Shown: piece by piece, positions 8,786 through 29,009 of the stretch
How the letters are laid out: every line of letters starts with the position of its first letter
Position numbering within the stretch: position 1 is the first letter of the stretch
Assembly: GCA_001029695.1 (NCBI GenBank)
Contig: CP011211.1
Span: 600,001 to 632,000 of the forward strand
DNA length: 32,000 bases
Source: Candidatus Saccharimonadota bacterium
GTDB lineage: Bacteria > Patescibacteriota > Saccharimonadia > Saccharimonadales > Saccharimonadaceae
Direction of reading: 5' to 3'
Program-made: the position numbers and the translations under genes
The notes under the pieces: generated by a model
The model's database searches: none
What the model was told of the DNA's origin: nothing
Seen by the model: the letters and a program-made list of their open reading frames with translations, nothing else

Positions 8786-9514
8786 CTATATCCTCCTGGC
8801 TGTTACATAATTATCAGTTCTTTGATTCCTTAGCTTTATCAGCTCACTCGTCATATTCATATACGACAGGTACTCGTCGACCGTTTTCGGTATTGGTGTC
8901 GAACGGAAGTCATCGAAAGGCTCAGCTATTTTGACGCTCGTGTAATCTTCTGTCACGTAATCTTGTAGCAAAAAGAAGTCGATATAGCCCTTAAAATCAT
9001 CGAAAAGTTGAAAGAAGTCACTATACCTCACGAAGGTTTCATATAGCGGGCTAGCTTCACCTAAATAAAAGCGCCGGATACACTCAATCGTTAGATCGAG
9101 GCGATCGACAATCTGCCGGTTAAAACCTCTGGCGCCATTGATAGTCTGGAACCCATTTATTTTATTACTAGGCCAAATTACGATTCCACCTATCGTATCT
9201 GTGAGACGAATAAAATCCTCTAATTCTTTTGCGGGAATCTGATCAATTACATGCTTCATCTTCACCCACGACGAGAACGTGGCAATTGCTCGGTCACTTG
9301 ATAAATAAAACTCACCCAGTTCAGACCTATGATACAAACGGTTATCGCTAATTTTTGTTAGCTCAAACATTTTTCCGCTAGGCAGTGGCTTGCTCCATAA
9401 GATGCGGTGATATTCCTGCAAAGTTGGGCTGTATTTATCCGAATCCCTCTGGACACCAGCCCTATCAAGGCCGGCTTCTTTCTGAAAATCAAAATCGACA
9501 TCAATTGCGCTCAT
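8786..9514 (-). CDS. Conserved-looking protein of unknown function
   Basis: ORF 8786..9535 starts with TTG. ATG 9514 has a GAGGAAGGG SD and lies 4 nt after the HAD stop. Blocks are YHRILWSKPLPSGK, IWPSNKINGFQTINGARG and DRLDLTIECIRRFY. I vaguely recall a DUF-type family (possibly DUF6994) but cannot verify it. Confidence 0.6.
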   Translation of the reverse strand: MSAIDVDFDFQKEAGLDRAGVQRDSDKYSPTLQEYHRILWSKPLPSGKMFELTKISDNRLYHRSELGEFYLSSDRAIATFSSWVKMKHVIDQIPAKELEDFIRLTDTIGGIVIWPSNKINGFQTINGARGFNRQIVDRLDLTIECIRRFYLGEASPLYETFVRYSDFFQLFDDFKGYIDFFLLQDYVTEDYTSVKIAEPFDDFRSTPIPKTVDEYLSYMNMTSELIKLRNQRTDNYVTARRI

Positions 9515-9518
9515 GATT

Positions 9519-9941
9519 TCACCCTTCCTCGACAATCGACTTCAGTAGTTTTAGTTCATGCACCATTTGATCAGGATATTTGGCTAAATTAACTTCAATC
9601 CACGAGTTGAAGACTCCGTGCTCATGCAGGTCAATCTTCTCGCCACTAAAGCAGTCGTCGTCGAACCACAGAAATGGTTTCGTAAAGTCGATCGCTTCAG
9701 TTTTCTTCAAGCTCCAAGTGACTGGCTTAAACTTTTCGAGCCACGGTCGTAAGTCTTCATCACTTCCACGCTGCAAGTACTCAATTGCGTGACCGGTCGT
9801 TCCATCCATGCAGTGTGTCGTGAGCCAATATACATCAAAATTATCTGCAGCATATTTTATAAACTCAGCCGCCCCGATAGCCAAGTTCTCTTCGTTTGCT
9901 AGCAGTACCCCGTCGATGTCTAAATATAGAGCAGGTTTCAT
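9519..9941 (-). CDS. Cap-less HAD-superfamily phosphatase
   Basis: ORF 9519..9980 trimmed to ATG 9941, which overlaps the upstream stop as ATGA. Motif I is LYLDIDGVLL (DxDGx), motif II is WLTTHC, and motif IV is LWFDDD. Confidence 0.75.
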   Translation of the reverse strand: MKPALYLDIDGVLLANEENLAIGAAEFIKYAADNFDVYWLTTHCMDGTTGHAIEYLQRGSDEDLRPWLEKFKPVTWSLKKTEAIDFTKPFLWFDDDCFSGEKIDLHEHGVFNSWIEVNLAKYPDQMVHELKLLKSIVEEG

Positions 9942-11287
9942 ATTTTTAATAGCTCCTGCCATATCCTCACCATCGCCCACGTATCCATCCTGCAGTACTC
10001 AGTCAAGTCGGCGAGTATCTGCTCTTTCTGGTCCGCCCGCGTCTCATCGAGTACCGCCTCCATCCAGAGCCGTTGAGCGGAGTTGCCATCTTGAATACCA
10101 AGCTCTTTGTAGCTTAATTCGGGGCACACTACTGGCAACACCTTTTTGATGCTCGCGCTTCCCTCGCATCGCGGATCGTCATACCATTTTGCCTTGAACG
10201 GAATCATGAGGTCAACGACTCGTTCGTTGATGGCCGTGATTTGTTCGGCATACTCTGGGTACATCCGTCCCAGCTCTTCGTTAACCGATTTTTCAAAGCG
10301 CATATTCCAGGTAATGATTGATCCCGAATCGCCCATATCTTCTACTAGCCGTTTAGCTAAATCTGGTGCTGGATTAGTGTTATCTTTATGGAGATATTCT
10401 CGATGCTCTACTTCCCCGCCCGGCTCGCGGATGATATGCAAAGAGTATTGGAACGGTACCTGCTGATACGGTCGCTGTCCATCGAAATACGGCACAAGGC
10501 CCTGCATTGTTTCGTAATCAAAGAAGTAGAGTGGGTACTGCAATTCACCCAAAAAGCGCTCGATCTCCTGCTTGTTAATTTCGGCTCGAGTATCTGCTGG
10601 CCACACCGTAGGCTCGGGCGGAAATATATTTTCATAGACCTTCATCCATTCAGATTTTGAGCCTAGCTTAGCCAGCTCTGGATTCGGATCCGGCATTTCG
10701 GCTTGCGTGGCGGCTTTATTCGCTGCCTCCATGTATTCTGGAGTTTTTAAAGCAATTTCATTTACCTCATCTGTCACATCAGCAAACGTCGTAAGCTCTT
10801 TTGGATTAACGTCGCCCATACGAACGTACTGGTTATTTACATGGATCACCGATACATTTCGAACCGTAAAGCCATTACCCTCAAGCACGGTTTTCTGGAA
10901 CGCAAGATCGTATAGGTGATCTGGTTTAACGCATGTGCTGGATTTAATTTCATACAGGTCAATAGTCTTACCCTCTACAATTGAAACAATATCGGAGATA
11001 CACGTAAATCCATTCCATTCAAAACGGGGCTGGAATACTACCTGAGCACCCGATTCAAATGCTTGCTGGGTTCGTAGCGGTAGCGAACGGTACTCATCGA
11101 AATTACTGAAGCCGAGCGCCACGCCTTCAGGAAATAATGACTCAACATACGGCTCGAACGCATGCCCAGCGTCGAACATTGCTTGTGTCGCTGCGTCGAC
11201 GGGTGGAAGTTTGCTCGGGTCATTCTTTTTCAGCCAAAGCCAGGCTGGCTGGCGGAGAAAGAGCATGTAATCGGATTTGGATATCAT
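9938..11287 (-). CDS. Two-nuclease fusion: N-terminal PD-(D/E)xK (Cas4/RecB-like) + C-terminal DEDD/RNase-H-fold exonuclease (DUF2779-like)
   Basis: In the 449-aa ORF, ISDIVSIVEGKTIDLYEIKSS supplies D...ExK. The C-terminal half has YFFDYET (ExoI DxE), ITWNMRFEKSV (ExoII) and EYCRMDTWAMV (ExoIII YxxxD). The overall layout matches what I remember of DUF2779 proteins. Confidence 0.7.
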   Translation of the reverse strand: MISKSDYMLFLRQPAWLWLKKNDPSKLPPVDAATQAMFDAGHAFEPYVESLFPEGVALGFSNFDEYRSLPLRTQQAFESGAQVVFQPRFEWNGFTCISDIVSIVEGKTIDLYEIKSSTCVKPDHLYDLAFQKTVLEGNGFTVRNVSVIHVNNQYVRMGDVNPKELTTFADVTDEVNEIALKTPEYMEAANKAATQAEMPDPNPELAKLGSKSEWMKVYENIFPPEPTVWPADTRAEINKQEIERFLGELQYPLYFFDYETMQGLVPYFDGQRPYQQVPFQYSLHIIREPGGEVEHREYLHKDNTNPAPDLAKRLVEDMGDSGSIITWNMRFEKSVNEELGRMYPEYAEQITAINERVVDLMIPFKAKWYDDPRCEGSASIKKVLPVVCPELSYKELGIQDGNSAQRLWMEAVLDETRADQKEQILADLTEYCRMDTWAMVRIWQELLKI

Positions 11288-12105
11288 TGCTGTGACAACC
11301 TGAGTGGAAACTTTACCACCTGACGCTGATTGTTAGCTTCGTCCTTTTGCCGCTCATAATACGGATCGCCTACAAGCTGTACTTGGCCACGATACATATA
11401 CTCTTTCGGCTCAAACGATTCAAATAAATGCACGCCTACTCCATTCGTGCGCGATTCGGCCAAGGTTTTGTTCTGTGCATAATCTATCGACTGATCACCT
11501 GAGAGCCCCATGCCGGTGTAGTGCATCACGCCCTGGTCGTCCCATTTGTCTTCGTACGGATTGCCAGTATTATGCAGTGCAAAAAGAATCAAGCTATTGG
11601 CGCGGTTCGACTTTCGCATACCACCCTGCCCGCTCACGAGGAACATCCGCATGATATCTTCATTTTTATAAGCATCGCCAATCACTAGCTCGTGTAATGC
11701 AGGCTGTCGTTTATCTTTTGTAATTTGCTCTAGTAGCTCCACGTCAGCCGGCGCTAGCTCATAGCCATATAGTTGCCGCAGATTATCTACCCACGCTAGC
11801 TCAGAGTGCTCGCGTAGCTGGTAAGCTCCTAGTTTGTGTTCACAAGCGTATAGCTTGAGCATGATTTCATCGTTTATCTGCGTGTTTGCGAGCAGCTTAC
11901 TGACAGCGATAAGTGTGTTGAACTCTTCGACTATCTCGCGCTCTAGCGCCTCCTGTTCGGTCTCGCCATCCTCCACCTTACCGCCAGGAAATTCCCACAA
12001 GCCACCAAGTGCCGCATCAACCTTACGCTTAGCGATGAGGTATTTACCATTTCTTTCTATCAGCGCTGCAACAACAATCTTGTGCGTATTATCTTTTTTA
12101 TCCAT
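11284..12105 (-). CDS. MutT-type NUDIX hydrolase fused to an SRA/YDG-like (PUA-fold) putative modified-base-binding domain
   Basis: In the 273-aa ORF the N-terminal half contains GGLWEFPGGKVEDGETEQEALEREIVEEF (MutT-like Nudix box). The C-terminal ~135 aa read GGMRKSNRANSLILFALHNTGNPYEDKWDDQGVMHYTGMGLSGDQ...NKTLAES...VHLFES...YMYRGQVQL. This follows the SAD/SRA core pattern (G-x-R, buried strand, acidic Y-E-D, YTG-G). The assignment is from memory and needs an HMM check. Confidence 0.65.
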   Translation of the reverse strand: MDKKDNTHKIVVAALIERNGKYLIAKRKVDAALGGLWEFPGGKVEDGETEQEALEREIVEEFNTLIAVSKLLANTQINDEIMLKLYACEHKLGAYQLREHSELAWVDNLRQLYGYELAPADVELLEQITKDKRQPALHELVIGDAYKNEDIMRMFLVSGQGGMRKSNRANSLILFALHNTGNPYEDKWDDQGVMHYTGMGLSGDQSIDYAQNKTLAESRTNGVGVHLFESFEPKEYMYRGQVQLVGDPYYERQKDEANNQRQVVKFPLRLSQQ

Positions 12106-12799
12106 GACGTATCTCCAAGCTTTCTTTAATTTGCCTCCAGTGCGACAATTTACTGTTCATTATTCTATAAAATGCTTCGTCATGTTTCTTATTTACTACA
12201 TGACACAACTCATGAATACAAACATAATAAATTGCTTCGCGTGGCGCTTCAATGAGTCGCGGATTAAGTAGCACCTTGCCATCACTCGTATAACTGCCCC
12301 AGCGACGAGCCATAATGCGCTGTCCGAGCTGTGGCATTGTTTTATAATCGAATAATTTAAAAGCTTTCACGTACTCCTGCTTAAATATACGCTCACGATT
12401 ACGTGCATACCACTCGCCAAGTAGCTTTTTATTGTTTTCGCTGTTTTGTACTGAGCCAGTCGTATAGATTCGGAGCTTACCACGCTCTAACTTCACCGTA
12501 TCATTTTTAGCTTTTTCGACTAAAAGCATATACTGACGACCCAGGTAATAATACGACTCACCAGATATATACTTTCGCTCTGTGTTAGATTTTTTGAATT
12601 TACGCAGTTCAGATAATTGTCGCTCGAGCCACGACCATTTACGTTTCATAAACGACTCAATTTCGTCTAGTGTAGCGCCCAGCGGTGCTTTTACGATTAT
12701 TCGTAAGTTTGGCAGCACCTCAAGAGCTAGAGTTTTGCGCTTGGCAAATTCAATAAAATATTCGTAACTAAACCGCCCATACTCAAACTTTTGCTTCAC
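12098..12799 (-). CDS. DUF45/YgjP-like M48-type zinc metallopeptidase (common type I R-M accessory gene)
   Basis: The 233-aa ORF has a GTG start 2 nt after the hsdR stop. The HExxH motif sits in YYVCIHELCHVVNKKHD, and the WSYTSDGKVLLNPRL-type block (RWGSYTSDGKVLLNPRL) is typical of DUF45. Confidence 0.8.
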   Translation of the reverse strand: MKQKFEYGRFSYEYFIEFAKRKTLALEVLPNLRIIVKAPLGATLDEIESFMKRKWSWLERQLSELRKFKKSNTERKYISGESYYYLGRQYMLLVEKAKNDTVKLERGKLRIYTTGSVQNSENNKKLLGEWYARNRERIFKQEYVKAFKLFDYKTMPQLGQRIMARRWGSYTSDGKVLLNPRLIEAPREAIYYVCIHELCHVVNKKHDEAFYRIMNSKLSHWRQIKESLEIRHG

Positions 12800-12801
12800 A
12801 G

Positions 12802-15800
12802 CTACACCCCGTAGTCTGAATGGTTGTTTTCGGCGAGTGTCATAACTTTTTCGACGATTTGCTCTATTTGTTCATTTTCAAGTTCGATACCACGCCCAAT
12901 CTTAATCTCTTCGTAAACATAGTCATCGATGTTCGATCGCATCTGTCGCTTGATTTCATAGTTTCGCCACCAATCAACCGTCGCGCTCCGCTGCACTACA
13001 TTTGCTAGCTCTAAAATAATTTGTTGGTACTGCTCGTCACTTTCCATAGGCAACATTTCACGCAAGTTTCGATACAGCGCCCCCGCACCTGGTTCGCTTT
13101 GCACTACATCAGGGGTTTCATCATCTTTTTTCTGATCAACCTCTTTTTCAATTTCTCGTAGTTGCTTCAGCGCTTCGATATCTGCCATCTTCTTTTCGTG
13201 CATCGCCTGTAGTATTTCAGCAATTCGCTCCGAAAACTTACCATACAGCACTTCGTCGTCCTGCTGTCGCTCAGTAATTCGCCGTTTCGTTTGCGCAGCA
13301 ATTGCTTCGGCCTTCGATGTTACGCTTCCCAGCTCTTCAATCGCAGCGTTCAACTCATCACGGTTCGTCACTTCTATCTGGTCGGTTAGCACCTCGGCCT
13401 GAGACGCCGTCACGTATTGGTCGAGTATTCGGCTAATTTCGCGCTCGTACTGCTTCAAATCGATTTCTTCACCGTTCATCAAATCAGCATTGCGTTTTAA
13501 TTCGGCAAACTTTTTGATATCACGGCGATAGCGCTGTATCTCATCGTCACTAATCTTCTCTGCAAACCCACGAAGCGCCTTACATTCTTCGTATACATTC
13601 AGTAGCTGGTTAAACTTATCTTTATAGATTTTGCGTGTCGGCTCATCGCGCAGATGCTCGATGTAGCTATGGCTATCTTTTTCAACACCGTTGAACACAT
13701 CAAGCACTGCCGCATACTTTTGCGCCAGTTCTTCTACTTTGTCATTTATATCAATCAGCGTGCCTTTGACATCCGCTTCATCAAAATTGCCAAACAAATC
13801 CATGGCTTCCTGAATACTTGTGGCATTTTCAGAGTAGTCAATAATGAATCCGCTCGTCTTTGGATAATGCGGGTTATTAAACAGTCGGTTCACCCGCGCA
13901 ATTGCCTGTAGCAAGTTATGGTCGACCAACTTTTTTGCCAAATACAGCACGGTATTTCGCGGCGCATCAAACCCTGTCAGCAACTTATCGACAACAATTA
14001 AAAGCTCTATACCTTCTGGGTTGTTTTTGAAGTCATCGATTGTCATATCTTCGTAGGTTTTGAGCCCAGCATATTTAGCTTTTATCTCACTCAAATAATC
14101 AGCCACCTCTTGTTTCTTTAGGTCTTCTTCGCTGATTTCGTTGTTGTCATCACTAATTATCAGGGCTGTTTGGAGTTTATGTCGCCGCTCAAACCACCGC
14201 TGCATCACCACCGCGGCATATTTACTTGGCGCAACAATCTGACCCTTCAGACCTGTGTGCTGAAAATTATCGATGTAGTGCTGCTCAATATTCGCACACA
14301 CCTCTTCGAGCTTGCTCGGCACTTCGGCCAAAGTTCTATTCTCGACGCGCCGCTGTAGCTTATACTTATTTTGCGCCGACAGGTCTTCGCTTACTCGGTC
14401 GGCCAGTCTATCGATTTGCGGTGCGTTTTGGTCGAGCGCCACATAACGACCTTCATAAATCAGCGGCAATACTACATTATCAGCTAGCGCATCGTCTATC
14501 GTGTATTTATCGATAAACTCGCCGAATTTACTGCGTGATTTATCTTTTCGTAGCAGCGGCGTGCCAGTAAACGCAATCACGCATGCGTTCGGGATCACCC
14601 GTAGCATTTCCATATTGGCATCGCCGCCCTGTGAGCGGTGCGCTTCGTCAATTAGTACATAAATATTATCATCGGTATCTACAAAGTCCGTCCGCTTTTT
14701 GCCAGCACTTTCAAACTTATGAATCAGTGTCGTTAGTACGCTGGTGTCTTTACTCTTGATATGCTCCAGCAGCTCGTTACCGCTGGTCATTTGCTTGACT
14801 TTTTTCTTGAGGCCGCCGTTTTCAAACGTCTTTTTGATCTGCTTGTCCAGATCTACGCGGTCGGTCACCATTAGTACCCGCGGGTTTACTATGTGCGGTT
14901 GCTCTATCAGGGCGCGCACAAACATCACCATTGTCAGACTTTTACCAGAACCTTGGGTGTGCCATACAATACCACCCTTGTGGCGGCTGCCATACTCAGT
15001 TGTCTCAGTTTGTTTGATGCGCTCTAGCATTCGCTCTATGGCAAAATACTGCTGGTAGCGCGCCACTTTTTTGTATGCACCGTCATAAAATACAAAGTTT
15101 TTAACTATATCGAGCACCCGCTCTTGCCGTAGCATACCGTAAATCGTCTCGTCTTGCGGCATAATGCTACGCACCTGTAGTTGCTCCACACCATAGGTCG
15201 CACCGTTAAGGTCGCGCAGCAGCTGTGCGTATACGTCTTTGTCGATCGGCTTTGCTATGACATCTCGTAGTGTTGCGTGTAATCGCTCTTTTGGTGTATT
15301 CTTTTCACGCCACGATGAATAAAACTCTTCGGGCGTGCCCGCTGTGCCATATACCGCGTTTTCACCGTCCATAGCCAGCAGCAGCTGCTCGTAGATAAAT
15401 AGCTTAGGCGCATGGTCAGGCTTTTGGTAGCGCAGTAGCTGAGCAATAGCTTTTTTGTAGCCAACACTCGATTTTTTGTTTTCGATATGCACCAGCGGTA
15501 TACCGTTTACAAAACACACTATGTCCGCTCGTATCGCTTCGCGCCCCACCACACGATACTCTACCGTTACATGAAATTCATTATTGGCTATATTATCAAA
15601 GTCAAAATACCGCAGGCTTTTGTTTTCGTGCTTGCCCTCATGAAATACCTCTATGGTGCTACCTCCAAGTTTTGGCATGATGATATCCGTCACCGCCCGA
15701 CTAGTATCTATCACGCCGTCTACGCGGATAGATTCTAATTCGCTAACAACCCGCGCAATGTCACCTTCTTTGAACTTGTGCGTTTCGCCTACGTGTTCAT

Positions 15801-15984
15801 AGCTGTTTATACGCATTAAACTACGCCGCAGCACATCACCCAGTATCACGCGGCTATCATCGTCGCCCCGTAGCGCTAGCGCTTGCTTGCAGCTAAGGTA
15901 CTGCCAGCCGAGGTTTATCAGTAGCTCGACCGCCGGCAGCTGCGACTGCTTGGCTTCGTCAAAATTTATCGGTTCCATGCTCAT
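12802..15984 (-). CDS. hsdR: Type I restriction enzyme R subunit
   Basis: The 1060-aa ORF has an N-terminal HsdR_N nuclease region (DIVCFVNGIPLVHIENKK), SF2 helicase Walker A HTQGSGKSLTM, and DEAH box VLIDEAHRSQ. The ATGA overlap joins it to the hsdS stop. Confidence 0.95.
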   Translation of the reverse strand: MSMEPINFDEAKQSQLPAVELLINLGWQYLSCKQALALRGDDDSRVILGDVLRRSLMRINSYEHVGETHKFKEGDIARVVSELESIRVDGVIDTSRAVTDIIMPKLGGSTIEVFHEGKHENKSLRYFDFDNIANNEFHVTVEYRVVGREAIRADIVCFVNGIPLVHIENKKSSVGYKKAIAQLLRYQKPDHAPKLFIYEQLLLAMDGENAVYGTAGTPEEFYSSWREKNTPKERLHATLRDVIAKPIDKDVYAQLLRDLNGATYGVEQLQVRSIMPQDETIYGMLRQERVLDIVKNFVFYDGAYKKVARYQQYFAIERMLERIKQTETTEYGSRHKGGIVWHTQGSGKSLTMVMFVRALIEQPHIVNPRVLMVTDRVDLDKQIKKTFENGGLKKKVKQMTSGNELLEHIKSKDTSVLTTLIHKFESAGKKRTDFVDTDDNIYVLIDEAHRSQGGDANMEMLRVIPNACVIAFTGTPLLRKDKSRSKFGEFIDKYTIDDALADNVVLPLIYEGRYVALDQNAPQIDRLADRVSEDLSAQNKYKLQRRVENRTLAEVPSKLEEVCANIEQHYIDNFQHTGLKGQIVAPSKYAAVVMQRWFERRHKLQTALIISDDNNEISEEDLKKQEVADYLSEIKAKYAGLKTYEDMTIDDFKNNPEGIELLIVVDKLLTGFDAPRNTVLYLAKKLVDHNLLQAIARVNRLFNNPHYPKTSGFIIDYSENATSIQEAMDLFGNFDEADVKGTLIDINDKVEELAQKYAAVLDVFNGVEKDSHSYIEHLRDEPTRKIYKDKFNQLLNVYEECKALRGFAEKISDDEIQRYRRDIKKFAELKRNADLMNGEEIDLKQYEREISRILDQYVTASQAEVLTDQIEVTNRDELNAAIEELGSVTSKAEAIAAQTKRRITERQQDDEVLYGKFSERIAEILQAMHEKKMADIEALKQLREIEKEVDQKKDDETPDVVQSEPGAGALYRNLREMLPMESDEQYQQIILELANVVQRSATVDWWRNYEIKRQMRSNIDDYVYEEIKIGRGIELENEQIEQIVEKVMTLAENNHSDYGV

Positions 15985-17282
15985 AGTGCGCTCCTTTCTA
16001 GGCGAGTTGTATCAAGCGGTTTCAAATCCTCGGGAGTTCGAATAGCGCCGGTGATGAGATTTTTAAGGAGGTATTTTTTCTGAAGCCGTATTTCGTTTAA
16101 TGTTGCTTTCAGAGCTTCGATCTCATCATCAGCGATCTTAACTACACTAGCAATTGCATCCTGCTCCTCTATGTCATCTGGGATCGTGATCTTTGCACTC
16201 TCAAGAGCATCCTTTGATAAAGTAAATCGTGTTGCACCTTGTGCTCTTTTCCAAAGTTCTTTGTAGAAAGCATTCGTTTTAAAGCAATATGCCGCAAAAC
16301 TGACGGACATATAGGAACCCTTCATCCTGAGTCGCATCAGGTGATAACTGAACACAGTCATTGGTAAATCCTCGATAACTACTGCGCTATGTCCTATGTC
16401 CGTAGGCGTCTCTGACGAAGGGGTGAACAGAACGTCTCCGCTCTTCAAGTCAGATGCACCTATCTGAGACTCTTTAGCTGTGACCGCTTGAAAAATGTCG
16501 GAGTTACTTATGCGATCTCTCCTGTATACGTCCATATAGTTTAGTAACCTAACACTCTGCTCACCTGCTACAGACAGCTTATCTACGCTGCTAGTACGAG
16601 CATACCCCATATCTCCAAGTGAAACCGTTATCCATTCACGATCAAATCCAGGCATGCGGCGCTTTCCAGTCAAAAGCTGCTGCATCAACCCCTTTTTCAG
16701 CTGCCCTTTCAGCGCGATCTTCTGCTCCAGCTTCTCGATATACTCGTCCCAAACCTCCAAAACCCCCACAATCCGCTCTTGCTCTGGCTTTTCAGGATAG
16801 CTGACGTCGACACTCGCTATACTGCTTTTAGTTAGTCCGTAGACTTTGCTATAAACAGACATTTGCATTAAGCGTTTATGAGTTGCCGGATTTTTAAGCA
16901 TAAGACCAGTAAATCCTGGCGCAAACTCATCATTTTTACTGCGCAGCGCAAAAGTGTGAAGTCCTCCTATGACTTTTCTTTCGCTAACATTTCGTAATTC
17001 AACAGAGGAGCCCACTCCATCGTAATCTTCCGAAGCGTCAGCAACTACCAGATCGCCATCCTGTAGCCGCATATTGTCGCGAACAGTATTCTCTATCAGT
17101 ACTGGCACGATATCTTTGTCCAAATTTACATATGTAAAATATTTTGTGTGAATATCACCATAGTGAATATTGAAAACTTGATTAGGATTATCTGTAGCGC
17201 TGGTCATATCGTTGCGCGAGTGCGCACCAGTCGATATAAAATCCATTACGTCGCCGAGTTTTTTTGTCTGCCAGCTAGTCAT
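15981..17282 (-). CDS. hsdS: Type I R-M specificity subunit (two target-recognition domains)
   Basis: ORF 15981..17306 starts with TTG, and ATG 17282 gives MTSWQTKKLGDV. There are two TRDs separated by the conserved helices EQERIVGVLEVWDEYIEKLEQKIALKGQLKKGLMQQLLTG and EQDAIASVVKIADDEIEALKATLNEIRLQKKYLLKNLITG. Confidence 0.9.
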   Translation of the reverse strand: MTSWQTKKLGDVMDFISTGAHSRNDMTSATDNPNQVFNIHYGDIHTKYFTYVNLDKDIVPVLIENTVRDNMRLQDGDLVVADASEDYDGVGSSVELRNVSERKVIGGLHTFALRSKNDEFAPGFTGLMLKNPATHKRLMQMSVYSKVYGLTKSSIASVDVSYPEKPEQERIVGVLEVWDEYIEKLEQKIALKGQLKKGLMQQLLTGKRRMPGFDREWITVSLGDMGYARTSSVDKLSVAGEQSVRLLNYMDVYRRDRISNSDIFQAVTAKESQIGASDLKSGDVLFTPSSETPTDIGHSAVVIEDLPMTVFSYHLMRLRMKGSYMSVSFAAYCFKTNAFYKELWKRAQGATRFTLSKDALESAKITIPDDIEEQDAIASVVKIADDEIEALKATLNEIRLQKKYLLKNLITGAIRTPEDLKPLDTTRLERSAL

Positions 17283-19092
17283 TGCTTTCCCCGAGCGTGT
17301 CCGCAATCTGTTTTAGAGCAATAAACCAGCCCTCAACTTCACTCCATGTGCCTGCCTGCTCAAAGATACTTTTAGTTAACACTCTAGAGACTTGTCCATT
17401 TAGTCTACTTTTTGCCGACTTTTCATCTATGCCGAGCTTATTAGCAACGAGCCGAGGCACGTCCTCTTCTGCCCAATTAGTTACACTTCCAAGCTGTACT
17501 GACAGCTCTGCCTCAATTAGCGACTGCGGTAAATAGTTCTCGATCTCTCTAAGATTTGTAAGTCGAGCAGAAGAATTGTCTGCGCGCGCATTCACTTCAT
17601 CGACATACCTTTGATTTTCTGACGTTTTAGGCTCAATATCTTTATCATATAAATGAAATTGAATGACGCTAGAGTTTTTGAGGTAATCACTTTGCACCCA
17701 GTCTATGAGATTGCTGCCGCGTAGTGGCATTATAGAAATATCGGATTCATCCAAATTAATTATCTGCTTAAGCTCTGGTATCGAGGAGTTGATGTTTTTC
17801 ACAAAGGTAACGTCGGTACTCCCCTCTAGGCACAAGATTAATTTATTATAATTCGGCATAACGCCCAATGATTTTGCGATTTTACCATAGGATCTTTCTC
17901 CTGATTTTACACTTTGGCCTTCAACTAGTCTTAGCGAACTGGTCGGCAGCATCTGGCTAAGAGCTGGACTATGCGTAGTTAGGATTACCTGGGTATTATC
18001 GGAGGCAGAAAGGGATATTAGTGCATTTATTAAGACTTTCTGATGCTCTGGGTGTTGCGATGTTTCGGGCTCTTCGATTGCATAGATTACGTCACCTACA
18101 TTGCGAGACTCTTTGCGTCTTTCCGCCTCGGCGCGAAAGAAATTAAGCAATACCAAGCGCTTAACTCCACTACCCCTCTTATTAAGCTTTATCTCTTTAT
18201 CTCCAACTATACCGATTGACTTAAACACATCAGCCCACTTTAACTCTTCTAGTTTTGGGAGTTTTGGAGATAATTGGTTAGCAATTTCAGGGTTCATCTC
18301 TTTTAACTTTTCAAGAGTTTGGTTGGCAATATCTTTGGTTCTAGATTCCACTTCGTTAAATATCTGCTCAAACTTATCCTGAAGATCAGGATCCTGCATG
18401 ATTTCTTTCACAGCCAACTTCATAGGGTTTTGCACTTCACTATCTTGATCGGAGTTAGAGCGATCAGACTGAAATAGAGCATATACTGGCGTGTATCTCT
18501 GTAGACTGTCCCATATCTTTTTAGTGTCTTCAGTTTTTGCGCTAATCTCGGTTAATTGTAGCTGTAAATCGTCTTCATGATTGCGAATAGCGGCGCGCAT
18601 AATGGCATTTATAGACTGATTCGAGCACTCTATAGAGTTATCTGTGATAACTTTTTTAAGTACAGATTGTTTTTGTTGCATAAGCTCGCGCGATAATTCG
18701 CTAGTAGGATGATTTGCTACTAAGAATACCGAGTCAGTCTTACCATTCTTATAAACTTTTTTAACTTCCAGCTCTCCGCTTGCATTAACTAAGTACTCTG
18801 ACTCTAGTGTTGTCTTATTGCCAGCGTCAATATCCACTTCGTTAGGGAGATCGGAAAAAGTAACCGAGATTGAGATTTCGTAATCTTCATTTTCTTCCGC
18901 TTCTTTATTTAGATCATCTGGTTCAATCTTTACACATGCATCCTTATCATTGAAAAATATATCTAAAGCTTCCAATAGTGTAGATTTACCAGCATCATTA
19001 CGGCCAACAAATACAGTCAAATCATCGATGGACATACTCACCTCGTCTCGGTAAGATCTAAAATTCTTCAACTTTAGCCCGGTAACCCTCAC
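17275..19092 (-). CDS. OLD-family ABC-ATPase + TOPRIM nuclease (single-polypeptide; class-1 OLD / fused PARIS-like)
   Basis: The 605-aa ORF has a GTG start overlapping the upstream TAG. N-terminal motifs are LKLKNFRSY, Walker A GRNDAGKST, Walker B-like VIYAIEEPETSQHP and H-loop ILTTHSP. C-terminal TOPRIM motifs are LILCLEGSTD (E), HLYDKD (DxD) and LREIENYL. Confidence 0.8.
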   Translation of the reverse strand: MRVTGLKLKNFRSYRDEVSMSIDDLTVFVGRNDAGKSTLLEALDIFFNDKDACVKIEPDDLNKEAEENEDYEISISVTFSDLPNEVDIDAGNKTTLESEYLVNASGELEVKKVYKNGKTDSVFLVANHPTSELSRELMQQKQSVLKKVITDNSIECSNQSINAIMRAAIRNHEDDLQLQLTEISAKTEDTKKIWDSLQRYTPVYALFQSDRSNSDQDSEVQNPMKLAVKEIMQDPDLQDKFEQIFNEVESRTKDIANQTLEKLKEMNPEIANQLSPKLPKLEELKWADVFKSIGIVGDKEIKLNKRGSGVKRLVLLNFFRAEAERRKESRNVGDVIYAIEEPETSQHPEHQKVLINALISLSASDNTQVILTTHSPALSQMLPTSSLRLVEGQSVKSGERSYGKIAKSLGVMPNYNKLILCLEGSTDVTFVKNINSSIPELKQIINLDESDISIMPLRGSNLIDWVQSDYLKNSSVIQFHLYDKDIEPKTSENQRYVDEVNARADNSSARLTNLREIENYLPQSLIEAELSVQLGSVTNWAEEDVPRLVANKLGIDEKSAKSRLNGQVSRVLTKSIFEQAGTWSEVEGWFIALKQIADTLGESND

Positions 19093-19637
19093 TACGCTTC
19101 TCCTTTTGCATTATTCATAACTTTCAACGTCTTTTCCAGCTGCTCACGCAGTTTCTCATCCGTCATCTCGCCCCGCTCGTCTTGCGCCTGGGCTTTAAGG
19201 ATGTTCATCAGCTCCTGGCCATCTTGAAACGTCTTATTGAGCTTTTCGATATCTTGCTCCTGCCTTGCAAGCAGCTGCTGGCGTTTACGAGATTGCTCAA
19301 AAAGCCCGGCAAAAAATACCACAAATCCAATCATGCCAATAATGACAGCCACTCGGCTATTAAACGACGGCACCGTAATTGTTAGCCCGGCAGTTGCTAT
19401 GGCAACAAACATTGGCAACAAGAATTTACACATACCAATCCAGTGATCGATTCCCTGAAGTTGCTTGACATGAAGTGACTGCACTATATTAAGTGCCCGC
19501 TCGGTCATATCGAAATGATCGCTCATCATGTTCATGGCTCCCTCCATGATTTGAGCGTATTTTGCCATACCACCCATTTGCTCAAAAGATTGTATGGCCA
19601 GCTCTAGCTCTTCTTGGGTAACTGGCTTACTATTCAT
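19092..19637 (-). CDS. Two-TM membrane protein with C-terminal coiled coil, unknown function
   Basis: The 181-aa ORF has TM segments FLLPMFVAIATAGLTITVP and VAVIIGMIGFVVFFAGLF, then RKRQQLLARQEQDIEKLNKTFQDGQELMNILKAQAQ. It overlaps both neighbouring genes. Confidence 0.6.
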   Translation of the reverse strand: MNSKPVTQEELELAIQSFEQMGGMAKYAQIMEGAMNMMSDHFDMTERALNIVQSLHVKQLQGIDHWIGMCKFLLPMFVAIATAGLTITVPSFNSRVAVIIGMIGFVVFFAGLFEQSRKRQQLLARQEQDIEKLNKTFQDGQELMNILKAQAQDERGEMTDEKLREQLEKTLKVMNNAKGEA

Positions 19638-20643
19638 CCTTCCCCTCCAGCCGCTTCACTTCTTTTTCAAAGTCACCAATAAATTCCTTGTCTTGCTGAA
19701 CGCGAAATACATCATATTCAGCCAATGCTTTGGTGTCTGCTTGTTTTTTGCTAATGTTGCCCGCGTTTTGAAGTTTTGGATAATCGTTGAGGTCGAGGTA
19801 GCCGTCCATTATACCGAGCCACTGTGCCATACTTGTTGGCATGTTTCTGCGCGCGCGAAGTTCGGCGGTATCAAGAAATGCCGACACTGCAACGCGCAGC
19901 TCGGATAACTCTTGGTCGCTGAGGTAATTCTTGGCTACGGTTACGTCGGTGCGGAGCACCTTGCCTTCTGGCGCTTGCTTCCAGTTGGTAAGCCCCATGT
20001 GTGGTTTTGTTTTGTCAGCACGAGCATGAATAAGCTCAGCTGCGGTTTTACCTGCTACGGCGTAATGGAGCTTGTTTTGAATAAACGCAAAGAATTCTTT
20101 GGCAATTTCACTAGTTTTATCGTAATCACTTGCGAGCGCAAATACATCGGTGACTTTTAGGTAAATCCGTCGTTCGCTGAGGCGAATTTCGCGAATACGC
20201 TCGAGGAGCTCTTCGAAGTAATCTTTGCCAAAGTGTGTACCTTGCGCCAGGCGCTCATCGTCAAGCACGAAGCCTTTTACCATGTACTCACGGAGTGTCG
20301 CGGTGGCCCACTTGCGAAAGGCCGTAGCCTGAAGAGAATTCACTCGGTACCCTACCGAAATAATTGCATCGAGGTTGTAAAATGCAGTAAGGTATTTCTT
20401 TCCGTCGGCGGCAGTTGTTCGAAATTTTCGAATAACTGAATCTGCGTCGAGCTCGCCCGAGCCAAAAACCTCTTTGAGGTGGTAGTTAATTGTATTAACC
20501 TCTACGCCAAAAAGCTCAGCCATGCGCTTTTGCGTAAGCCAGACTGTTTCGCCAGCATAAAAGACTTCGATATGCTGCTTGCCGTCGGGCCCAGAGTAGA
20601 ATAGGAATTCGGCTTCGTGAGGCGCTGAGAGGTTATCGGCCAT
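19630..20643 (-). CDS. rhuM: RhuM-family protein
   Basis: The 337-aa ORF contains ETVWLTQKRMAELFGVEVNTINYHLKEVF, YNLDAIISVGYRVNSLQATAFRKWATATLREYMVKGF and RIREIRLSERRIY, which is the typical RhuM block order. Confidence 0.85.
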   Translation of the reverse strand: MADNLSAPHEAEFLFYSGPDGKQHIEVFYAGETVWLTQKRMAELFGVEVNTINYHLKEVFGSGELDADSVIRKFRTTAADGKKYLTAFYNLDAIISVGYRVNSLQATAFRKWATATLREYMVKGFVLDDERLAQGTHFGKDYFEELLERIREIRLSERRIYLKVTDVFALASDYDKTSEIAKEFFAFIQNKLHYAVAGKTAAELIHARADKTKPHMGLTNWKQAPEGKVLRTDVTVAKNYLSDQELSELRVAVSAFLDTAELRARRNMPTSMAQWLGIMDGYLDLNDYPKLQNAGNISKKQADTKALAEYDVFRVQQDKEFIGDFEKEVKRLEGKDE

Positions 20644-20644
20644 A

Positions 20645-22153
20645 TTACTTAATCCCCAACTCCTTTAGGTAATGCTTCATCTGCTCCTCAAGCTTGCTGA
20701 GCTGTGGGTTGATGGCTTCGATTTGACGGATTGTTTCCGCGATATCTACTTCTTCCTCTTCTTCAAAGGTATCAACATAGCGGGTGATGTTTAGGTTGTA
20801 GTCGTTTTCTTTAATTTCATCGATGTTAGCGATGTGCGAGAATTTCTCGACTTCTTTTCGCTGGGTGAATGTATCGACGATCTTATCGGCGTTTTCTTTG
20901 GCGAGAGTGTTTTGCGCCTTGCCTGGCTTGAATTCCTTAGAAGCTTCGATAAACAGGATGTCTTTGTCGTTTTCGCGCGCGCCGCCTTTTTCGCGGGCGC
21001 GGTCGATGACCAAAATTGCCACTGGTATGCCGGTGGTTTGGAAGAAACCAGGCGCCAGGCCAATCACGGCATCAATGATATTTTCTTCAATCAGTTGCTG
21101 CCGGATTTTACCCTCAGCACCACCGCGAAACAGTACACCGTGCGGCACGATCACCGCCATGCGTCCAGATTGCGGTTTGAGCGTTTCGATCATATGAGTG
21201 ATAAATGCGTAGTCACCCTTGTCTTTTGGTGGAATACCGCGCCAAAAACGATTATATTGGTCGGCATCGGCGCTTTCTGCGCCCCACTTCTTGAGGCTGA
21301 AGGGAGGATTAGCTACATTTACGTCAAACTTCATAAGCCCATCGTTTTCTACCAGCATTGGGTTGTTGAGCGTATCGCCCCACTCAATCCGTGCTTGATC
21401 CATGCCATGAAGAAACATATTCATACGCGCTAGCTGATAGGTCTGCCCTTTGGCTTCTTGACCGTAGAGCGCGAAGTTATTGCTGCCCTGTTTTCGCACC
21501 TCTTCACCTGCTAGCAGTAACAAGCCTCCCGATCCAACTGCTGGATCCGAAATACGGTCGCCTGGTTTTGGCCGAGCGAGCCGAGCAACAAGTTCTGCTA
21601 CAGCCGTAACGGTGAAAAACTCGCCAGCTTTTTTACCGGCATCGGCGCCAAACTTTTCAATCATGTACATGTATGAGTTGCCGATGATATCTTCGCTGAT
21701 GTCACTCAGGTCAATTTTGTAAAAATCCTCCAACAAATGACGCATCATCTTATTGCGTTGCTGCGGCTTGCCAAGCACTGACTCGGAGTTGAAGTCTACG
21801 CTAAACACGCCGGCCAGTTTGTCCTTGTTGTGGTCCTCGATCTTACGAAGGGCGACGTTGATAATTTCACCGATATTGTCTTGTTCTTTTTGAGCGTAAA
21901 CCTCATCGAACGAACTGTTTGGTGGTATATAAAAGCGAGATGTCTTCATCTTGGCGTCGATTCGTGCTGTGTCGTCACCGAAGCGTGCTTTTAATTTAGC
22001 GTATTCAGCCTTTGACTTGTCACTTAGATACTTGAAGAACAGCATGGTTAATGCGTAGTCTTTATACACGTCTGCTCCGACGGATGTTCGAGATGAATCC
22101 GCCGCCGCCCACAGCACTTTATTCAATTCGTCTTGTGTAAATTGCTTGGTCAT
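20645..22153 (-). CDS. hsdM: Type I R-M N6-adenine DNA methyltransferase subunit
   Basis: The 502-aa ORF has the SAM motif ISDPAVGSGGLLL and catalytic VANPPFSLKKW (NPPF). An HsdM N-terminal helical domain is present. Confidence 0.95.
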   Translation of the reverse strand: MTKQFTQDELNKVLWAAADSSRTSVGADVYKDYALTMLFFKYLSDKSKAEYAKLKARFGDDTARIDAKMKTSRFYIPPNSSFDEVYAQKEQDNIGEIINVALRKIEDHNKDKLAGVFSVDFNSESVLGKPQQRNKMMRHLLEDFYKIDLSDISEDIIGNSYMYMIEKFGADAGKKAGEFFTVTAVAELVARLARPKPGDRISDPAVGSGGLLLLAGEEVRKQGSNNFALYGQEAKGQTYQLARMNMFLHGMDQARIEWGDTLNNPMLVENDGLMKFDVNVANPPFSLKKWGAESADADQYNRFWRGIPPKDKGDYAFITHMIETLKPQSGRMAVIVPHGVLFRGGAEGKIRQQLIEENIIDAVIGLAPGFFQTTGIPVAILVIDRAREKGGARENDKDILFIEASKEFKPGKAQNTLAKENADKIVDTFTQRKEVEKFSHIANIDEIKENDYNLNITRYVDTFEEEEEVDIAETIRQIEAINPQLSKLEEQMKHYLKELGIK

Positions 22154-22707
22154 TTTGCTGCTCCTTGTGATTTAGCTATTAGGTTGTCGTCTATATTTTT
22201 GAGTAGTTGATTTTTGAGATTGAGTAGCTTTTGCTGCTCGGTTAGATTATCGTGTAATTTCATAACCGTCTGCTGCTCAATTACTGGCGGTTGCGGTACT
22301 TTTATCGACTTCAGGTCAGATAACCGTAGTGTTTTTATGTGCGAGCCGCTTTCTAAGCGCGATAAAACTTCCTGACCTCTTGCTGAATTCAGAAACCTTG
22401 CCACAAAACGGGAGTTTAGATCTGCACTGACTGGGCGAAGCACAATCACAGAGGATGCTGCAACAGCCGGTAGCAGGTCTGGAGTAACCGTGCGGGCAAC
22501 AAACTTGCCGCGCGAGCTAAGCAGTATATCACCCGGTCTCAACAAGTGGTCCACTTTATCGAACATAACTCGCGTAATGCCTGCCAGATTAGCAGAAGTT
22601 ATATCACCCGACTGCACAACACCAACATCACCTCTATCAAGTCGAGCAATTGCGTCACGAAACGTGTAACCAGTCGAGATAGTAAATAGTTGACTTAACT
22701 CCATCAT
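22150..22707 (-). CDS. hsdS: Half-size (single-TRD) type I specificity subunit
   Basis: The 185-aa ORF has one TRD followed by a single conserved helix, PPVIEQQTVMKLHDNLTEQQKLLNLKNQLLKNIDDNL. It is the first gene of the operon and overlaps hsdM as ATGA. Confidence 0.75.
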   Translation of the reverse strand: MMELSQLFTISTGYTFRDAIARLDRGDVGVVQSGDITSANLAGITRVMFDKVDHLLRPGDILLSSRGKFVARTVTPDLLPAVAASSVIVLRPVSADLNSRFVARFLNSARGQEVLSRLESGSHIKTLRLSDLKSIKVPQPPVIEQQTVMKLHDNLTEQQKLLNLKNQLLKNIDDNLIAKSQGAAK

Positions 22708-22713
22708 GTCACG

Positions 22714-22742
22714 ATATTAGCAGAGCGGATAGGTGATGTCAA
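22714..22742 (-). promoter_or_regulatory. Consensus sigma70 promoter of the R-M super-operon, leaderless (TTGACA-17-TAATAT-6-ATG)
   Basis: On the minus strand the sequence is agagTTGACAtcacctatccgctctgcTAATATcgtgacATGATGGAG. Confidence 0.7.
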
Positions 22743-22764
22743 CTCTGACGTGACTGTACAGCAA

Positions 22765-23409
22765 TCATATGATACTTTTATAGCATTCTTGCGTTATTAC
22801 AACATGATCAATCAGCTCAATGCCGAGCAATTCGCCTGCATCTTTCAGCCTTTTTGTGACTTCTCTATCCGCTTGGCTCGGCTCAAGATTTCCGCTCGGA
22901 TGATTGTGCGCCACGACTATGGATGCTGCGCGATCGGCTATGGCTTCGGCAAAGACTTCGCGCGGATGAACCAAGCTAGCAGTGAGCGTGCCAATGGTGA
23001 TGATGCGTTTGGCGATGAGTCGATTGGCGCCGTCTAGTGTGAGGCAGACGAAGTATTCTTGTTTTTTGTCACGGATATCGACGAGTTGCTCGACTGCCTT
23101 TTCGGGGCTGTCGATGATCGGCCGCTCGGAAACTTCGAACTGCCGCCGCCATAACTCAAACCCGGCCATAATATTTGTTGCTTTTGCTGGGCCAAGGCTT
23201 TTGACATTGAGTAAATCTTCGTAAGCTAGCTCGCTACCTTTTTCTTTCAGTAATTTTTGCACCTCGCGAGCAAGCTTAGTCACATCAGCGTACTGTGTGC
23301 CGCTGCCGATTATCGCCATCAAAAGTTCGTAGTCACTCAAAGCCTCAGCACCTCGCGCCTGGAGCTTCTCCCTTGGTCGTAAGTCTTTGCGACGATCCGA
23401 CATCTTCAT
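22765..23409 (-). CDS. radC: RadC-like JAB/MPN domain protein
   Basis: ORF 22765..23457 trimmed to ATG 23409 (MKMSDRRKDLRPREKL...), which has TATACT (23416-23421) 6 nt upstream. The JAMM motif is VVAHNHPSGNLEPSQAD, with an N-terminal HhH-like ELLMAIIGSG. Confidence 0.85.
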   Translation of the reverse strand: MKMSDRRKDLRPREKLQARGAEALSDYELLMAIIGSGTQYADVTKLAREVQKLLKEKGSELAYEDLLNVKSLGPAKATNIMAGFELWRRQFEVSERPIIDSPEKAVEQLVDIRDKKQEYFVCLTLDGANRLIAKRIITIGTLTASLVHPREVFAEAIADRAASIVVAHNHPSGNLEPSQADREVTKRLKDAGELLGIELIDHVVITQECYKSII

Positions 23410-23484
23410 ATTTGCAGTATATACCTTGTTTACTATTTGCTCTAGTCGTTGCGGCATTTTCTAAAAGCGCTTCAAGACCACGCA

Positions 23485-24405: not shown

Positions 24406-24456
24406 AATTTCGTATATTATCTCACTTTTCGCTAGACTTTACTACTGTTAGGCGGT

Positions 24457-28893: not shown

Positions 28894-28958
28894 GCAGGTC
28901 TAGGAACTAGGTCTGCACTTTTCTCTGCTTGGTCTGGCTCCGGCAGCTGGGCTCGAAC
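28894..28958. repeat. R2: tRNA-Asn trailer + 3' part of the tRNA (partner of R1)
   Basis: See R1. On a plus-strand RNA, GCAGGUCUAG-gaa-CUAGGUCUGC would fold using two G-U pairs, but its minus-strand complement would not fold. Confidence 0.5.
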
Positions 28959-29009
28959 CAGCGACCTAATCGTTAACAGCGATCCGCTCTACCACTGAGC
29001 TATGCCGGA
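28935..29009 (-). tRNA. tRNA-Asn (anticodon GTT), CCA encoded
   Basis: The minus-strand sequence is TCCGGCA-TA-GCTC-AGTGGTA-GAGC-G-GATCG-CTGTTAA-CGATT-AGGTC-GCTGG-TTCGAGC-CCAGC-TGCCGGA-G-CCA. This gives a full cloverleaf with a 7-bp acceptor stem and a GTTCGAGC T-loop. Confidence 0.93.

Follow-up and report, generated by a model that had tools for sequence, protein, structure and literature searches.

A Nudix-SRA fusion protein from a Saccharimonadota defense cluster, a possible nuclease-free relative of modification-dependent restriction enzymes

The window analyzed here is a stretch of 32,000 nucleotides (nt) from a Candidatus Saccharimonadota bacterium (GenBank assembly GCA_001029695.1, contig CP011211.1, positions 600,001 to 632,000 of the forward strand). 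Its minus strand carries a gene for a protein of 273 amino acids (aa), in which a Nudix hydrolase domain is followed by an SRA domain (Nudix-SRA). The protein may be a nuclease-less member of the modification-dependent (type IV-like) restriction family, with an SRA half that would read modified cytosine and a Nudix half that would remove modified dCTP; this reading is put forward tentatively, at a little short of an even chance. The data support the view of the SRA half as a sensor and of the Nudix half as an enzyme acting on small molecules, joined in one protein and each, judging by its conservation, under purifying selection. The initial annotation had proposed recognition of modified DNA coupled to nucleotide hydrolysis, which is the idea favored here, or alternatively binding of a free modified mononucleotide by the SRA domain, which is unlikely. 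The gene and its parts, in window coordinates, are:

11284..12105, minus strand: Nudix-SRA open reading frame (ORF), complete, ATG-started, 273 aa plus stop
12113..12116, minus strand: Shine-Dalgarno GGAG, 7 nt 5' of the ATG (12105..12103), read from the sequence
11716..12081, minus strand: Nudix domain, NudG/MutT2-like, residues 9-130 (Pfam, NCBIfam, Foldseek)
11914..11982, minus strand: Nudix box, residues 42-64, GKVEDGETEQEALEREIVEEFNT, with conserved catalytic Glu and Arg
11290..11703, minus strand: SRA domain, ScoMcrA type (PF26348), residues 135-272 (precomputed Pfam, Foldseek)
11506..11556, minus strand: predicted flipped-base pocket motif, Y184-E-D186 ... Y196-T197-G198-M-G200 (conservation and alignment to UHRF1)

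The Nudix-SRA ORF is a real gene. It is the single ORF over 11284..12105, where the plus-strand frame is riddled with stops. Its start overlaps the stop of the preceding YgjP gene by 8 nt, and its TGA shares the letters ATGA with the ATG of the following DUF2779 gene (read from the sequence). A sequencing or assembly artifact can be dismissed as the source of the fusion, because the same 273-aa protein occurs unchanged on 21 public contigs, NCBI assembly GCA_001790535.1 among them. An ORF had been claimed at exactly these positions in the initial annotation, which left the strand unstated, and all motifs named there (WEFPGGK, REIVEEF, GGMRKS, SLILFA, YEDKWDDQGVMHYTGMGLSGDQ, VHLF, and YRG) were found. 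A search of 5.8 billion clustered proteins gave 1529 matches, 99 of which were aligned and classified with custom Nudix, SRA, and HNH profiles. The full-length AlphaFold (AF2) model built with the 99 aligned sequences had a mean predicted local distance difference test score (pLDDT) of 93.4. The 273 residues are wholly covered by the Nudix (9-130) and SRA (135-272) domains. No HNH or PD-(D/E)XK domain was detected in the protein by Pfam and the custom HNH profile, and since the polypeptide holds no nuclease domain, it was not classed as a restriction endonuclease.

The N-terminal half matched Pfam NUDIX_4 (PF14815; 1.5e-14, 54.2 bits, cut-off 35) and NUDIX (PF00293; 2.2e-12, 47.6 bits, cut-off 21.1), both over residues 9-127. 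The top NCBIfam model was NF007834, pyrimidine (d)NTP diphosphatase NudG, at 99.4 bits, short of the equivalog cut-off of 156 bits. By sequence, the best PDB matches were 3R03, E. coli Orf135/NudG (2RRK), and M. smegmatis MutT2. Foldseek ranks 1-7 were MsMutT2 entries, including the complex with 5-methyl-dCTP (5m-dCTP), with template modeling (TM) scores of 0.88-0.89, root mean square deviations of 1.6-1.8 Å, and 36% identity, and rank 8 was E. coli NudG (38% identity). The kcat/Km of NudG is 1.3e6 M-1 s-1 for 5m-dCTP vs 4.7e4 for CTP, a difference of about 28-fold (PMC5158307).

The Nudix box of the window protein reads G42-x5-E48-x7-R56-E57-I-V-E60-E61-F-N-T against the consensus GX5EX7REUXEEXGU, and only the last Gly is changed, to Asn; the same Asn stands in 65 sequences. 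E48 and R56 were constant in 80 sequences of the Nudix-bearing set, and E57, E60, and E61 in 77, 83, and 78 of the 85-sequence set, so that all five are essentially invariant across about 80 homologues with a Nudix domain, the most distant of them about 40% identical. The tail of the domain, LAPADVELLE, has LAPAD-x-x-LLE in common with LAPADIPLLE of NudG (HMMER alignment), and YELAPADVELLE of the window protein corresponds to YPLAPADIPLLE in NudG. The LAPAD motif, which we take to serve base recognition, includes D121, kept in 79 sequences of the Nudix-bearing set. From sequence and structural model, the half was concluded to be a putatively active NudG/MutT2-like pyrophosphohydrolase, and we infer its exact substrate to be modified dCTP. 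The MutT-type call of the initial annotation was correct and can be narrowed to the NudG/MutT2-like, cytosine-nucleotide clade.

The Nudix domain might instead act on another substrate tied to a conflict over DNA modification: UDP-glucose, the removal of which would block glucosylation of hydroxymethylcytosine (hmC) and expose the phage to McrBC or SRA nucleases, or a 5'-triphosphate or capped end of RNA or DNA. Bdellovibrio RppH, an RNA pyrophosphohydrolase, is also near in structure to the Nudix half (Foldseek, TM 0.8), and since the SRA-HNH enzyme TagI is unable to cut glucosylated hmC (PMC6212794), removal of the sugar donor would be useful. Such a substrate is nevertheless improbable, because the best sequence and structure neighbors are cytosine-nucleoside triphosphate (NTP) enzymes and not sugar-nucleotide hydrolases, and the NudG-like LAPAD tail with D121 is conserved.

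The C-terminal half was identified by its fold. In the local Pfam copy it gave sub-threshold matches to DUF3427 (1e-4) and SAD_SRA (PF02182; 20.6 bits vs a cut-off of 30.7, E 4e-4), and PF26348 (SRA_ScoMcrA) was assigned to the window protein and its homologues by the newer Pfam (precomputed matches). In the PDB, the single sequence and a 33-sequence profile of the half reached only E ~1 by sequence (ScoMcrA, SauUSI), and a profile retaining full-length rows was swamped by Nudix and HNH matches, so that the assignment needed a fold search. Residues 130-273 were modeled alone (pLDDT 93.6, predicted TM score (pTM) 0.88), and all 25 Foldseek matches in the PDB at E <0.01 were SRA domains, the next match being at E 0.35. 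ScoMcrA was on top (TMq 0.74, E 2.6e-7); SUVH5 was matched with TM 0.62-0.70, and further matches were AspBHI, LpnPI, KRYPTONITE, MspJI, SUVH6, the SauUSI specificity domain, and UHRF1. The C-terminal domain thus models as SRA and not as an unrelated fold, a check that had been suggested for residues ~135-273.

For comparison with UHRF1, its SRA sequence (numbering 414-590, 100% match to the PDB) was used. UHRF1 was not retrieved by the SRA family profile in the PDB sequence search; in hhalign local mode the profile aligned with it over 122 columns (pairwise E 2.3e-4), in a register that hmmsearch reproduced. The residues of the pocket motif are each constant in 97-98 of the 99 family sequences, and Y184, Y196, T197, G198, and G200, unchanged in 98 of them, align with UHRF1 Y466, Y478, T479, G480, and G482. 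In UHRF1 the flipped base is walled in by Y466 and Y478, behind which come the conserved residues T479-G482, and in TagI the pocket pattern is alike (Y55, D58, Y67, T68; PMC6212794). This establishes the SRA fold and the aromatic pocket. The SRA/YDG-like call of the initial annotation was right, with one correction: the NKR finger and long thumb of UHRF1 are missing and the SAD_SRA score is under threshold, and the domain is of the ScoMcrA type and not of the canonical UHRF1/SUVH type. A reading in which GGMRKS would be the thumb and SGDQ the NKR finger was dropped, because both loops are deleted in hhalign and GDQ falls on CDQ of UHRF1.

The same architecture was found elsewhere. The 99 aligned homologues comprised 66 Nudix-SRA proteins with recurring partners, 14 Nudix-SRA-HNH proteins, 6 SRA-HNH proteins, and 13 with SRA and another or no partner; the fusion, which could have been unique to this genome, is not. 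Within the two-domain group, Nudix halves had a mean pairwise identity of 58% and SRA halves one of 63%, so that the two are similarly constrained. Identity of the window SRA to its counterparts is 53-57% in the six plain SRA-HNH proteins and 40-49% in the Nudix-SRA-HNH proteins. PADLOC type IV REase models match the HNH halves of two related SRA-HNH proteins. An exhaustive search of 1.84 billion representatives at 50% identity gave 60 matches at E <=1e-30, and the best 150 representatives were counted by architecture: 52 SRA-HNH, 77 SRA with other partners, 7 Nudix-SRA-HNH, 6 Nudix-SRA, and 5 with the opposite order, SRA-Nudix. Nudix-SRA-type architecture is rare, with roughly a dozen 50%-identity clusters, but recurrent.

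Three of the SRA-Nudix proteins were SRA-Nudix-NOV_C (PF13020) by Pfam, with a Nudix domain 42% identical to that of the window and both the Nudix box and the pocket motif intact. NOV_C is presumably the family formerly named DUF3883. In Lutz et al., DUF3883 is named as the domain that supplies PD-(D/E)XK catalysis in YenY4I and McrB-like enzymes (PMC6765204). From the opposite domain orders and the unrelated nucleases, the SRA-Nudix pairing appears to have arisen at least two times. The initial annotation had pointed to the fusion with a pyrophosphatase instead of a nuclease; this stands for the window protein, which is nuclease-less, but sister architectures hold HNH or PD-(D/E)XK as well.

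In viral and metagenomic data the fusion was infrequent. IMG/VR held 45 loci with a ScoMcrA-type SRA, nearly all SRA-HNH, with a Nudix domain in only 1, and the 80 closest SRA relatives in metagenome contigs included 59 SRA-HNH and 6 Nudix-SRA proteins. Four nuclease-free proteins of 233-249 aa (P0107, P0109, P0111, P0116) carry the same SRA type behind a small N-terminal PcrA/UvrD-tudor-like domain (borderline Pfam) and a further ~60 residues without assignment. In a 92%-identical relative (L233; ERZ22666087 k127_47745590; window 10949..11601), Mrr_cat-nSTAND3 is in frame with the last 105 SRA residues, and DUF2779 comes next. Either the Nudix domain and the start of the SRA were lost there by deletion or rearrangement, or the assembly is chimeric. 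P0088 (Mrr_cat-nSTAND3-SRA, 98% identical SRA) was considered as a modular sensor swap and rejected, because homology begins mid-SRA, at residue 169, which marks it as either rearranged or the product of a chimeric contig.

The window protein could also be read as a decaying, functionless remnant of a Nudix-SRA-HNH enzyme left after loss of the nuclease. By tblastn against GTDB representative genomes, both halves were matched in 3 loci among the matches listed, and none of the 3 had an intact fusion ORF: in L028 (Acinetobacter proteolyticus NIPH 809) and L030 (a Desulfovibrionaceae metagenome-assembled genome) the frame was split into separate ORFs, and in L029 (Paenibacillus arenosi) SRA and HNH alone were recovered. 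A disrupted copy was also seen in L025, where an EVE-McrBC operon is followed by a 35-aa ORF, a 170-aa SRA ORF, and an HD_4 phosphohydrolase. This tiny sample, limited to the matches listed, suggests that the fusion decays frequently. For the window gene itself the chance of such a fate is very small. The 66 intact two-domain homologues have the identities given above in both halves and invariant functional residues, the same protein is found on 21 contigs, the gene has a proper Shine-Dalgarno sequence and overlaps both neighbors, and no HNH remnant lies 3' of the window gene. The dead-remnant reading appears already largely refuted by conservation.

The genomic contexts of the window gene and its homologues are given below, with identity to the window protein and the genes found at the locus; R-M stands for restriction-modification:

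Window, L001-4, and L154 (identical or ~92% in the SRA half): type I R-M, YgjP, Nudix-SRA, DUF2779
L008 and L153 (75% overall, 93% in the SRA half): ISP-like R-M, Nudix-SRA, DUF2779, with overlapping codons
L010 (66-67%): DUF2779, Nudix-SRA, DUF4357-McrB, McrC, DUF2779, 146-aa ORF, 234-aa ORF
L005, L157, and L158 (~59-62%): EVE-McrB, McrC, Nudix-SRA with a 4-nt overlap
L021 (52%): McrBC at 2 kb
L012-14 (62%): adjoining a type III R-M island that holds defense genes
L155 (~61% in the SRA half): between a UDG-family gene and an AAA_15 ATPase
L015 (Nudix-SRA-HNH): island with a stand-alone Nudix (44% identical to the window Nudix), SF1 helicase, NERD, and type I R-M
L202 (Nudix-SRA-HNH): adjoining AIPR
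L018 and L020 (52-58%): no obvious defense neighbors

The order HsdR-YgjP-Nudix-SRA of the window is repeated in L154. No C5-cytosine methyltransferase (PF00145) was found in any annotated context of the Nudix-SRA loci, and the methyltransferases seen were of the N6 or N6/N4 type. The lack of a nearby DNA methyltransferase was taken by Lutz et al. as support for modification-dependent activity in fusion enzymes of the PUA superfamily (PMC6765204).

These contexts bear on a second account, in which the SRA domain would be a specificity subunit that recruits or licenses a nuclease in trans (the overlapping DUF2779 protein, or McrBC elsewhere) and the Nudix domain would be a nucleotide-sensing or regulatory module. 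DUF2779 proteins combine a Cas4-like PD-(D/E)XK with a DnaQ-like 3'-5' exonuclease, described only computationally (PMC3985635, PMC13621843), and the window copy is a possible nuclease working in trans with Nudix-SRA. DUF2779 adjoins Nudix-SRA also in L008, L010 (in a different gene order), and L153, and in L233 it follows the joined SRA-end ORF; the ATGA stop/start overlap is present in the window, L008, L153, and L233. Nudix-SRA overlaps McrC in L005 and L157, and the sister proteins have their nuclease in cis. A purely regulatory Nudix domain, however, need not keep five catalytic residues invariant, the contexts of L005, L012, L018, L020, and L155 are without DUF2779, and in L010 a DUF2779 gene stands after McrC with no Nudix-SRA adjacent to it, so that it may belong to a separate module of DUF2779, a small ORF, and DUF6994. 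On balance this account is considered rather unlikely.

The reading of Nudix-SRA as a modified-cytosine sensor joined to a modified-dCTP hydrolase offers the most economical chemistry, as both halves would be linked via one moiety, C5-modified cytosine. The SRA domain would bind invading DNA bearing 5-methylcytosine (5mC) or 5-hydroxymethylcytosine (5hmC), with the modified base probably flipped into its two-tyrosine pocket. The NudG/MutT2-type Nudix domain would clear C5-modified cytosine from the triphosphate pool, and the fusion would localize or activate this modified-dCTP-destroying enzyme at modified foreign DNA. Phages that build their DNA from modified dCTP (5mC or 5hmC for C) would be starved of precursor. 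The host chromosome would be spared modified nucleotides, whether these stem from the breakdown of phage DNA or from phage enzymes; once incorporated, they would expose the host to its own modification-dependent nucleases (McrBC, HNH, and others). Starving the precursor supply and shielding the host from self-restriction would be non-exclusive benefits. Cleavage would be performed in trans by neighbors, such as the DUF2779 nuclease in the window and McrBC in other genomes, and in the sister proteins in cis via HNH or PD-(D/E)XK.

A related alternative is an abortive-infection effector, in which binding of modified phage DNA by the SRA domain would switch on the Nudix domain, canonical CTP and dCTP would be destroyed, and replication and transcription would halt. 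CTP and dCTP are also hydrolyzed by NudG and MutT2. The layout resembles that of the bacterial dCTP deaminase and dGTPase defenses, which act by nucleotide depletion and are sensor-plus-effector-like. A further precedent is type III CRISPR CAAD with Nudix, by which ATP is converted to ITP and then to IMP (PMC13276650). Nothing favors allosteric gating, though: the Nudix domain, of 120 aa, has a plain MutT-like fold, and its linker is short. The closest characterized relatives turn over canonical NTPs modestly, and killing by depletion would be superfluous in those proteins that join the same Nudix domain to a complete nuclease. Depletion of this kind is quite unlikely, more so than recruitment of a nuclease in trans.

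Several points weigh against the favored reading of a modified-cytosine sensor with a modified-dCTP hydrolase. Domain identities, conserved catalytic and pocket residues, and genomic associations are what the analysis shows, and the substrate, the DNA specificity, the coupling of the two domains, and the biological role are inferred from them. Several of the locus contexts come from related genomes, so their counts overstate independence, and the defense association does not extend to at least two homologues, L018 and L020. The score of the Nudix half below the NudG equivalog cut-off means that its substrate preference is extrapolated. The match of the window protein to the PADLOC PDC-S07 model (PDLC04899; 2.9e-36, 122 bits) was rejected as evidence of defense, because housekeeping NudG scores 136.9 bits on the same model. 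In the full-length model (pTM 0.69) the orientation between Nudix and SRA is loosely fixed. Base flipping and 5mC/5hmC specificity of the SRA half are predictions only, for three reasons. Relative to UHRF1, 8 residues are deleted at the thumb and ~12 at the NKR finger. The invariant D186 pairs with UHRF1 D468, one residue before the base-contacting D469, which pairs with K187. Finally, the canonical 5mC-contacting residues are not conserved in the ScoMcrA SRA according to its authors, who also noted that their SRA is without finger and thumb and may read 5mC differently (PMC6224610).

The PDC-S07 model was also matched by 3R03 and MsMutT2 as strongly as by island-borne Nudix proteins, and ordinary NudG orthologues may account for many of the PDC-S07 calls made when genomes are surveyed.

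In the window, the Nudix-SRA gene is part of a co-directional packed run, in transcription order hsdM, RhuM, 181-aa ORF, AriA-like ATPase, hsdS, hsdR, YgjP, Nudix-SRA, DUF2779, 153-aa ORF, DUF6994, and CBS protein. The neighboring features are:

20645..22153, minus strand: hsdM
19092..19637 and 19630..20643, minus strand: 181-aa ORF and RhuM/PDC-S05 gene
17275..19092, minus strand: AriA ATPase, PARIS-like, 605 aa (PADLOC AriA 9.7e-73, residues 1-377)
15981..17306, minus strand: hsdS
12802..15984, minus strand: hsdR
12098..12799, minus strand: YgjP-like metallopeptidase gene, upstream of Nudix-SRA (Pfam YgjP-like 4.2e-46)
9938..11287, minus strand: DUF2779 gene, downstream of Nudix-SRA (Pfam DUF2779 2.8e-42)
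8786..11287, minus strand: triad of DUF2779, 153-aa ORF, and DUF6994, which recurs as a block

Through the YgjP gene, Nudix-SRA is joined to the end of the type I R-M operon. The AriA-like gene is embedded in this operon, between hsdM and hsdS; its C-terminal ~230 aa have no assignment and may be a fused AriB, and the 181-aa ORF beside it gave no matches. The block of DUF2779, a small ORF (138-153 aa), and DUF6994 recurs beside Nudix-SRA or McrBC (L008, L010, L153), with the unannotated 234-aa ORF of L010 in the DUF6994 position, and the triad may be a separate uncharacterized defense module. The 153-aa ORF (9519..9980) was considered as a HAD-type nucleotidase from its HAD motif I-like LDIDGVLL, and this was given up, as no support was found in Pfam, NCBIfam, or the PDB. 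Upstream of hsdM (22150..25746) there are a half-size HsdS fragment (185 aa), RadC, a DUF5655/PDC-S18 gene (4.9e-94), and a divergent large serine recombinase, and a tRNA-Asn gene (28935..29009) lies 3 kb beyond the recombinase. The whole defense cluster may be a mobile island; the GC content is flat (0.41-0.49).

Both domains are of known kinds and the architecture is already in databases; no description of the combination or of its role was found. Full-text literature searches returned no paper on a Nudix-SRA fusion, and on a Nudix role in type IV restriction they yielded only two remarks, both on SauUSI. In at least 60 genomes, Xu et al. (2011) saw SauUSI-like type IV enzymes in linkage with a MutT/Nudix gene that is conserved (PMC3141236). 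Monk et al. (2012) found that a nudix deletion in S. aureus Newman was without the transformable phenotype of a sauUSI deletion (PMC3312211); as the deletion did not relieve restriction, the result fits an accessory or protective role. SauUSI (PLD nuclease, helicase, DUF3427 specificity domain) is 5mC/5hmC-dependent, and its SRA-like sensor is partnered with a Nudix protein, as in the window. With SauUSI, however, the sensor belongs to a large ATP-dependent nuclease and the Nudix protein has a gene of its own, whereas the window has a single fused protein.

Type IV enzymes are usually viewed as a sensor plus a nuclease. In the proteins described here, sensors of that family are combined again and again with a predicted pyrophosphatase for cytosine nucleotides, in either domain order, with one of two different nucleases or with none, and beside SauUSI as a gene of its own. 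The pattern suggests that modification-dependent immunity also has a nucleotide-pool side, and no paper found addresses such a role. By a doubtful but conceivable extension, the NudG-like Nudix would be a general, overlooked arm of modification-dependent restriction, in which destruction of 5m-dCTP and 5hm-dCTP is guided or activated by the reader and protects from self-restriction, with Nudix-SRA as its nuclease-free, pool-acting factor. If true, this would account for the Nudix gene beside SauUSI, unexplained since 2011, and it suggests a host-sparing block on phages with modified DNA. A 5m-dCTP/5hm-dCTP-selective hydrolase and a compact modified-cytosine reader for epigenetic tools could be by-products.

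Among characterized systems, the SRA fold is shared with the SRA-HNH type IV enzymes (TagI, ScoA3IV/Sco5333, TbiR51I) and with the SBD-SRA-HNH enzyme ScoMcrA, which names Pfam family PF26348 and is the best structural match of the window SRA. SRA-HNH enzymes, like Nudix-SRA, are found in defense islands, and also in prophages. They have HNH, whereas the window protein is nuclease-free with an N-terminal Nudix instead, and the SRA of TagI is canonical and UHRF1-like (phmmer with UHRF1, 1.4e-20), in contrast to the divergent ScoMcrA type of the window with its short thumb and finger loops. The Nudix half is closest (36-38%) to E. coli NudG (Orf135) and M. smegmatis MutT2, which are CTP/dCTP/5m-dCTP pyrophosphohydrolases; unlike the window protein, these are stand-alone housekeeping enzymes of ~130-140 aa without a DNA-reading domain. 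Nudix-SRA-HNH and SRA-Nudix-NOV_C/DUF3883 proteins (e.g., P0085, P0097, P0139) have the same Nudix clade (42-46%) and the same SRA family, but they carry a nuclease in cis, and the NOV_C form, with its reversed order, is an independent fusion. Nucleotide-pool systems, such as mammalian DCTPP1 for 5m-dCTP, the bacterial dCTP deaminase and dGTPase defenses, and CRISPR CAAD with Nudix, follow the same idea of pool control that protects a genome or starves a virus; they differ in having unrelated folds or partners, and none is known to be fused to a DNA-modification reader as the Nudix domain of the window protein is.

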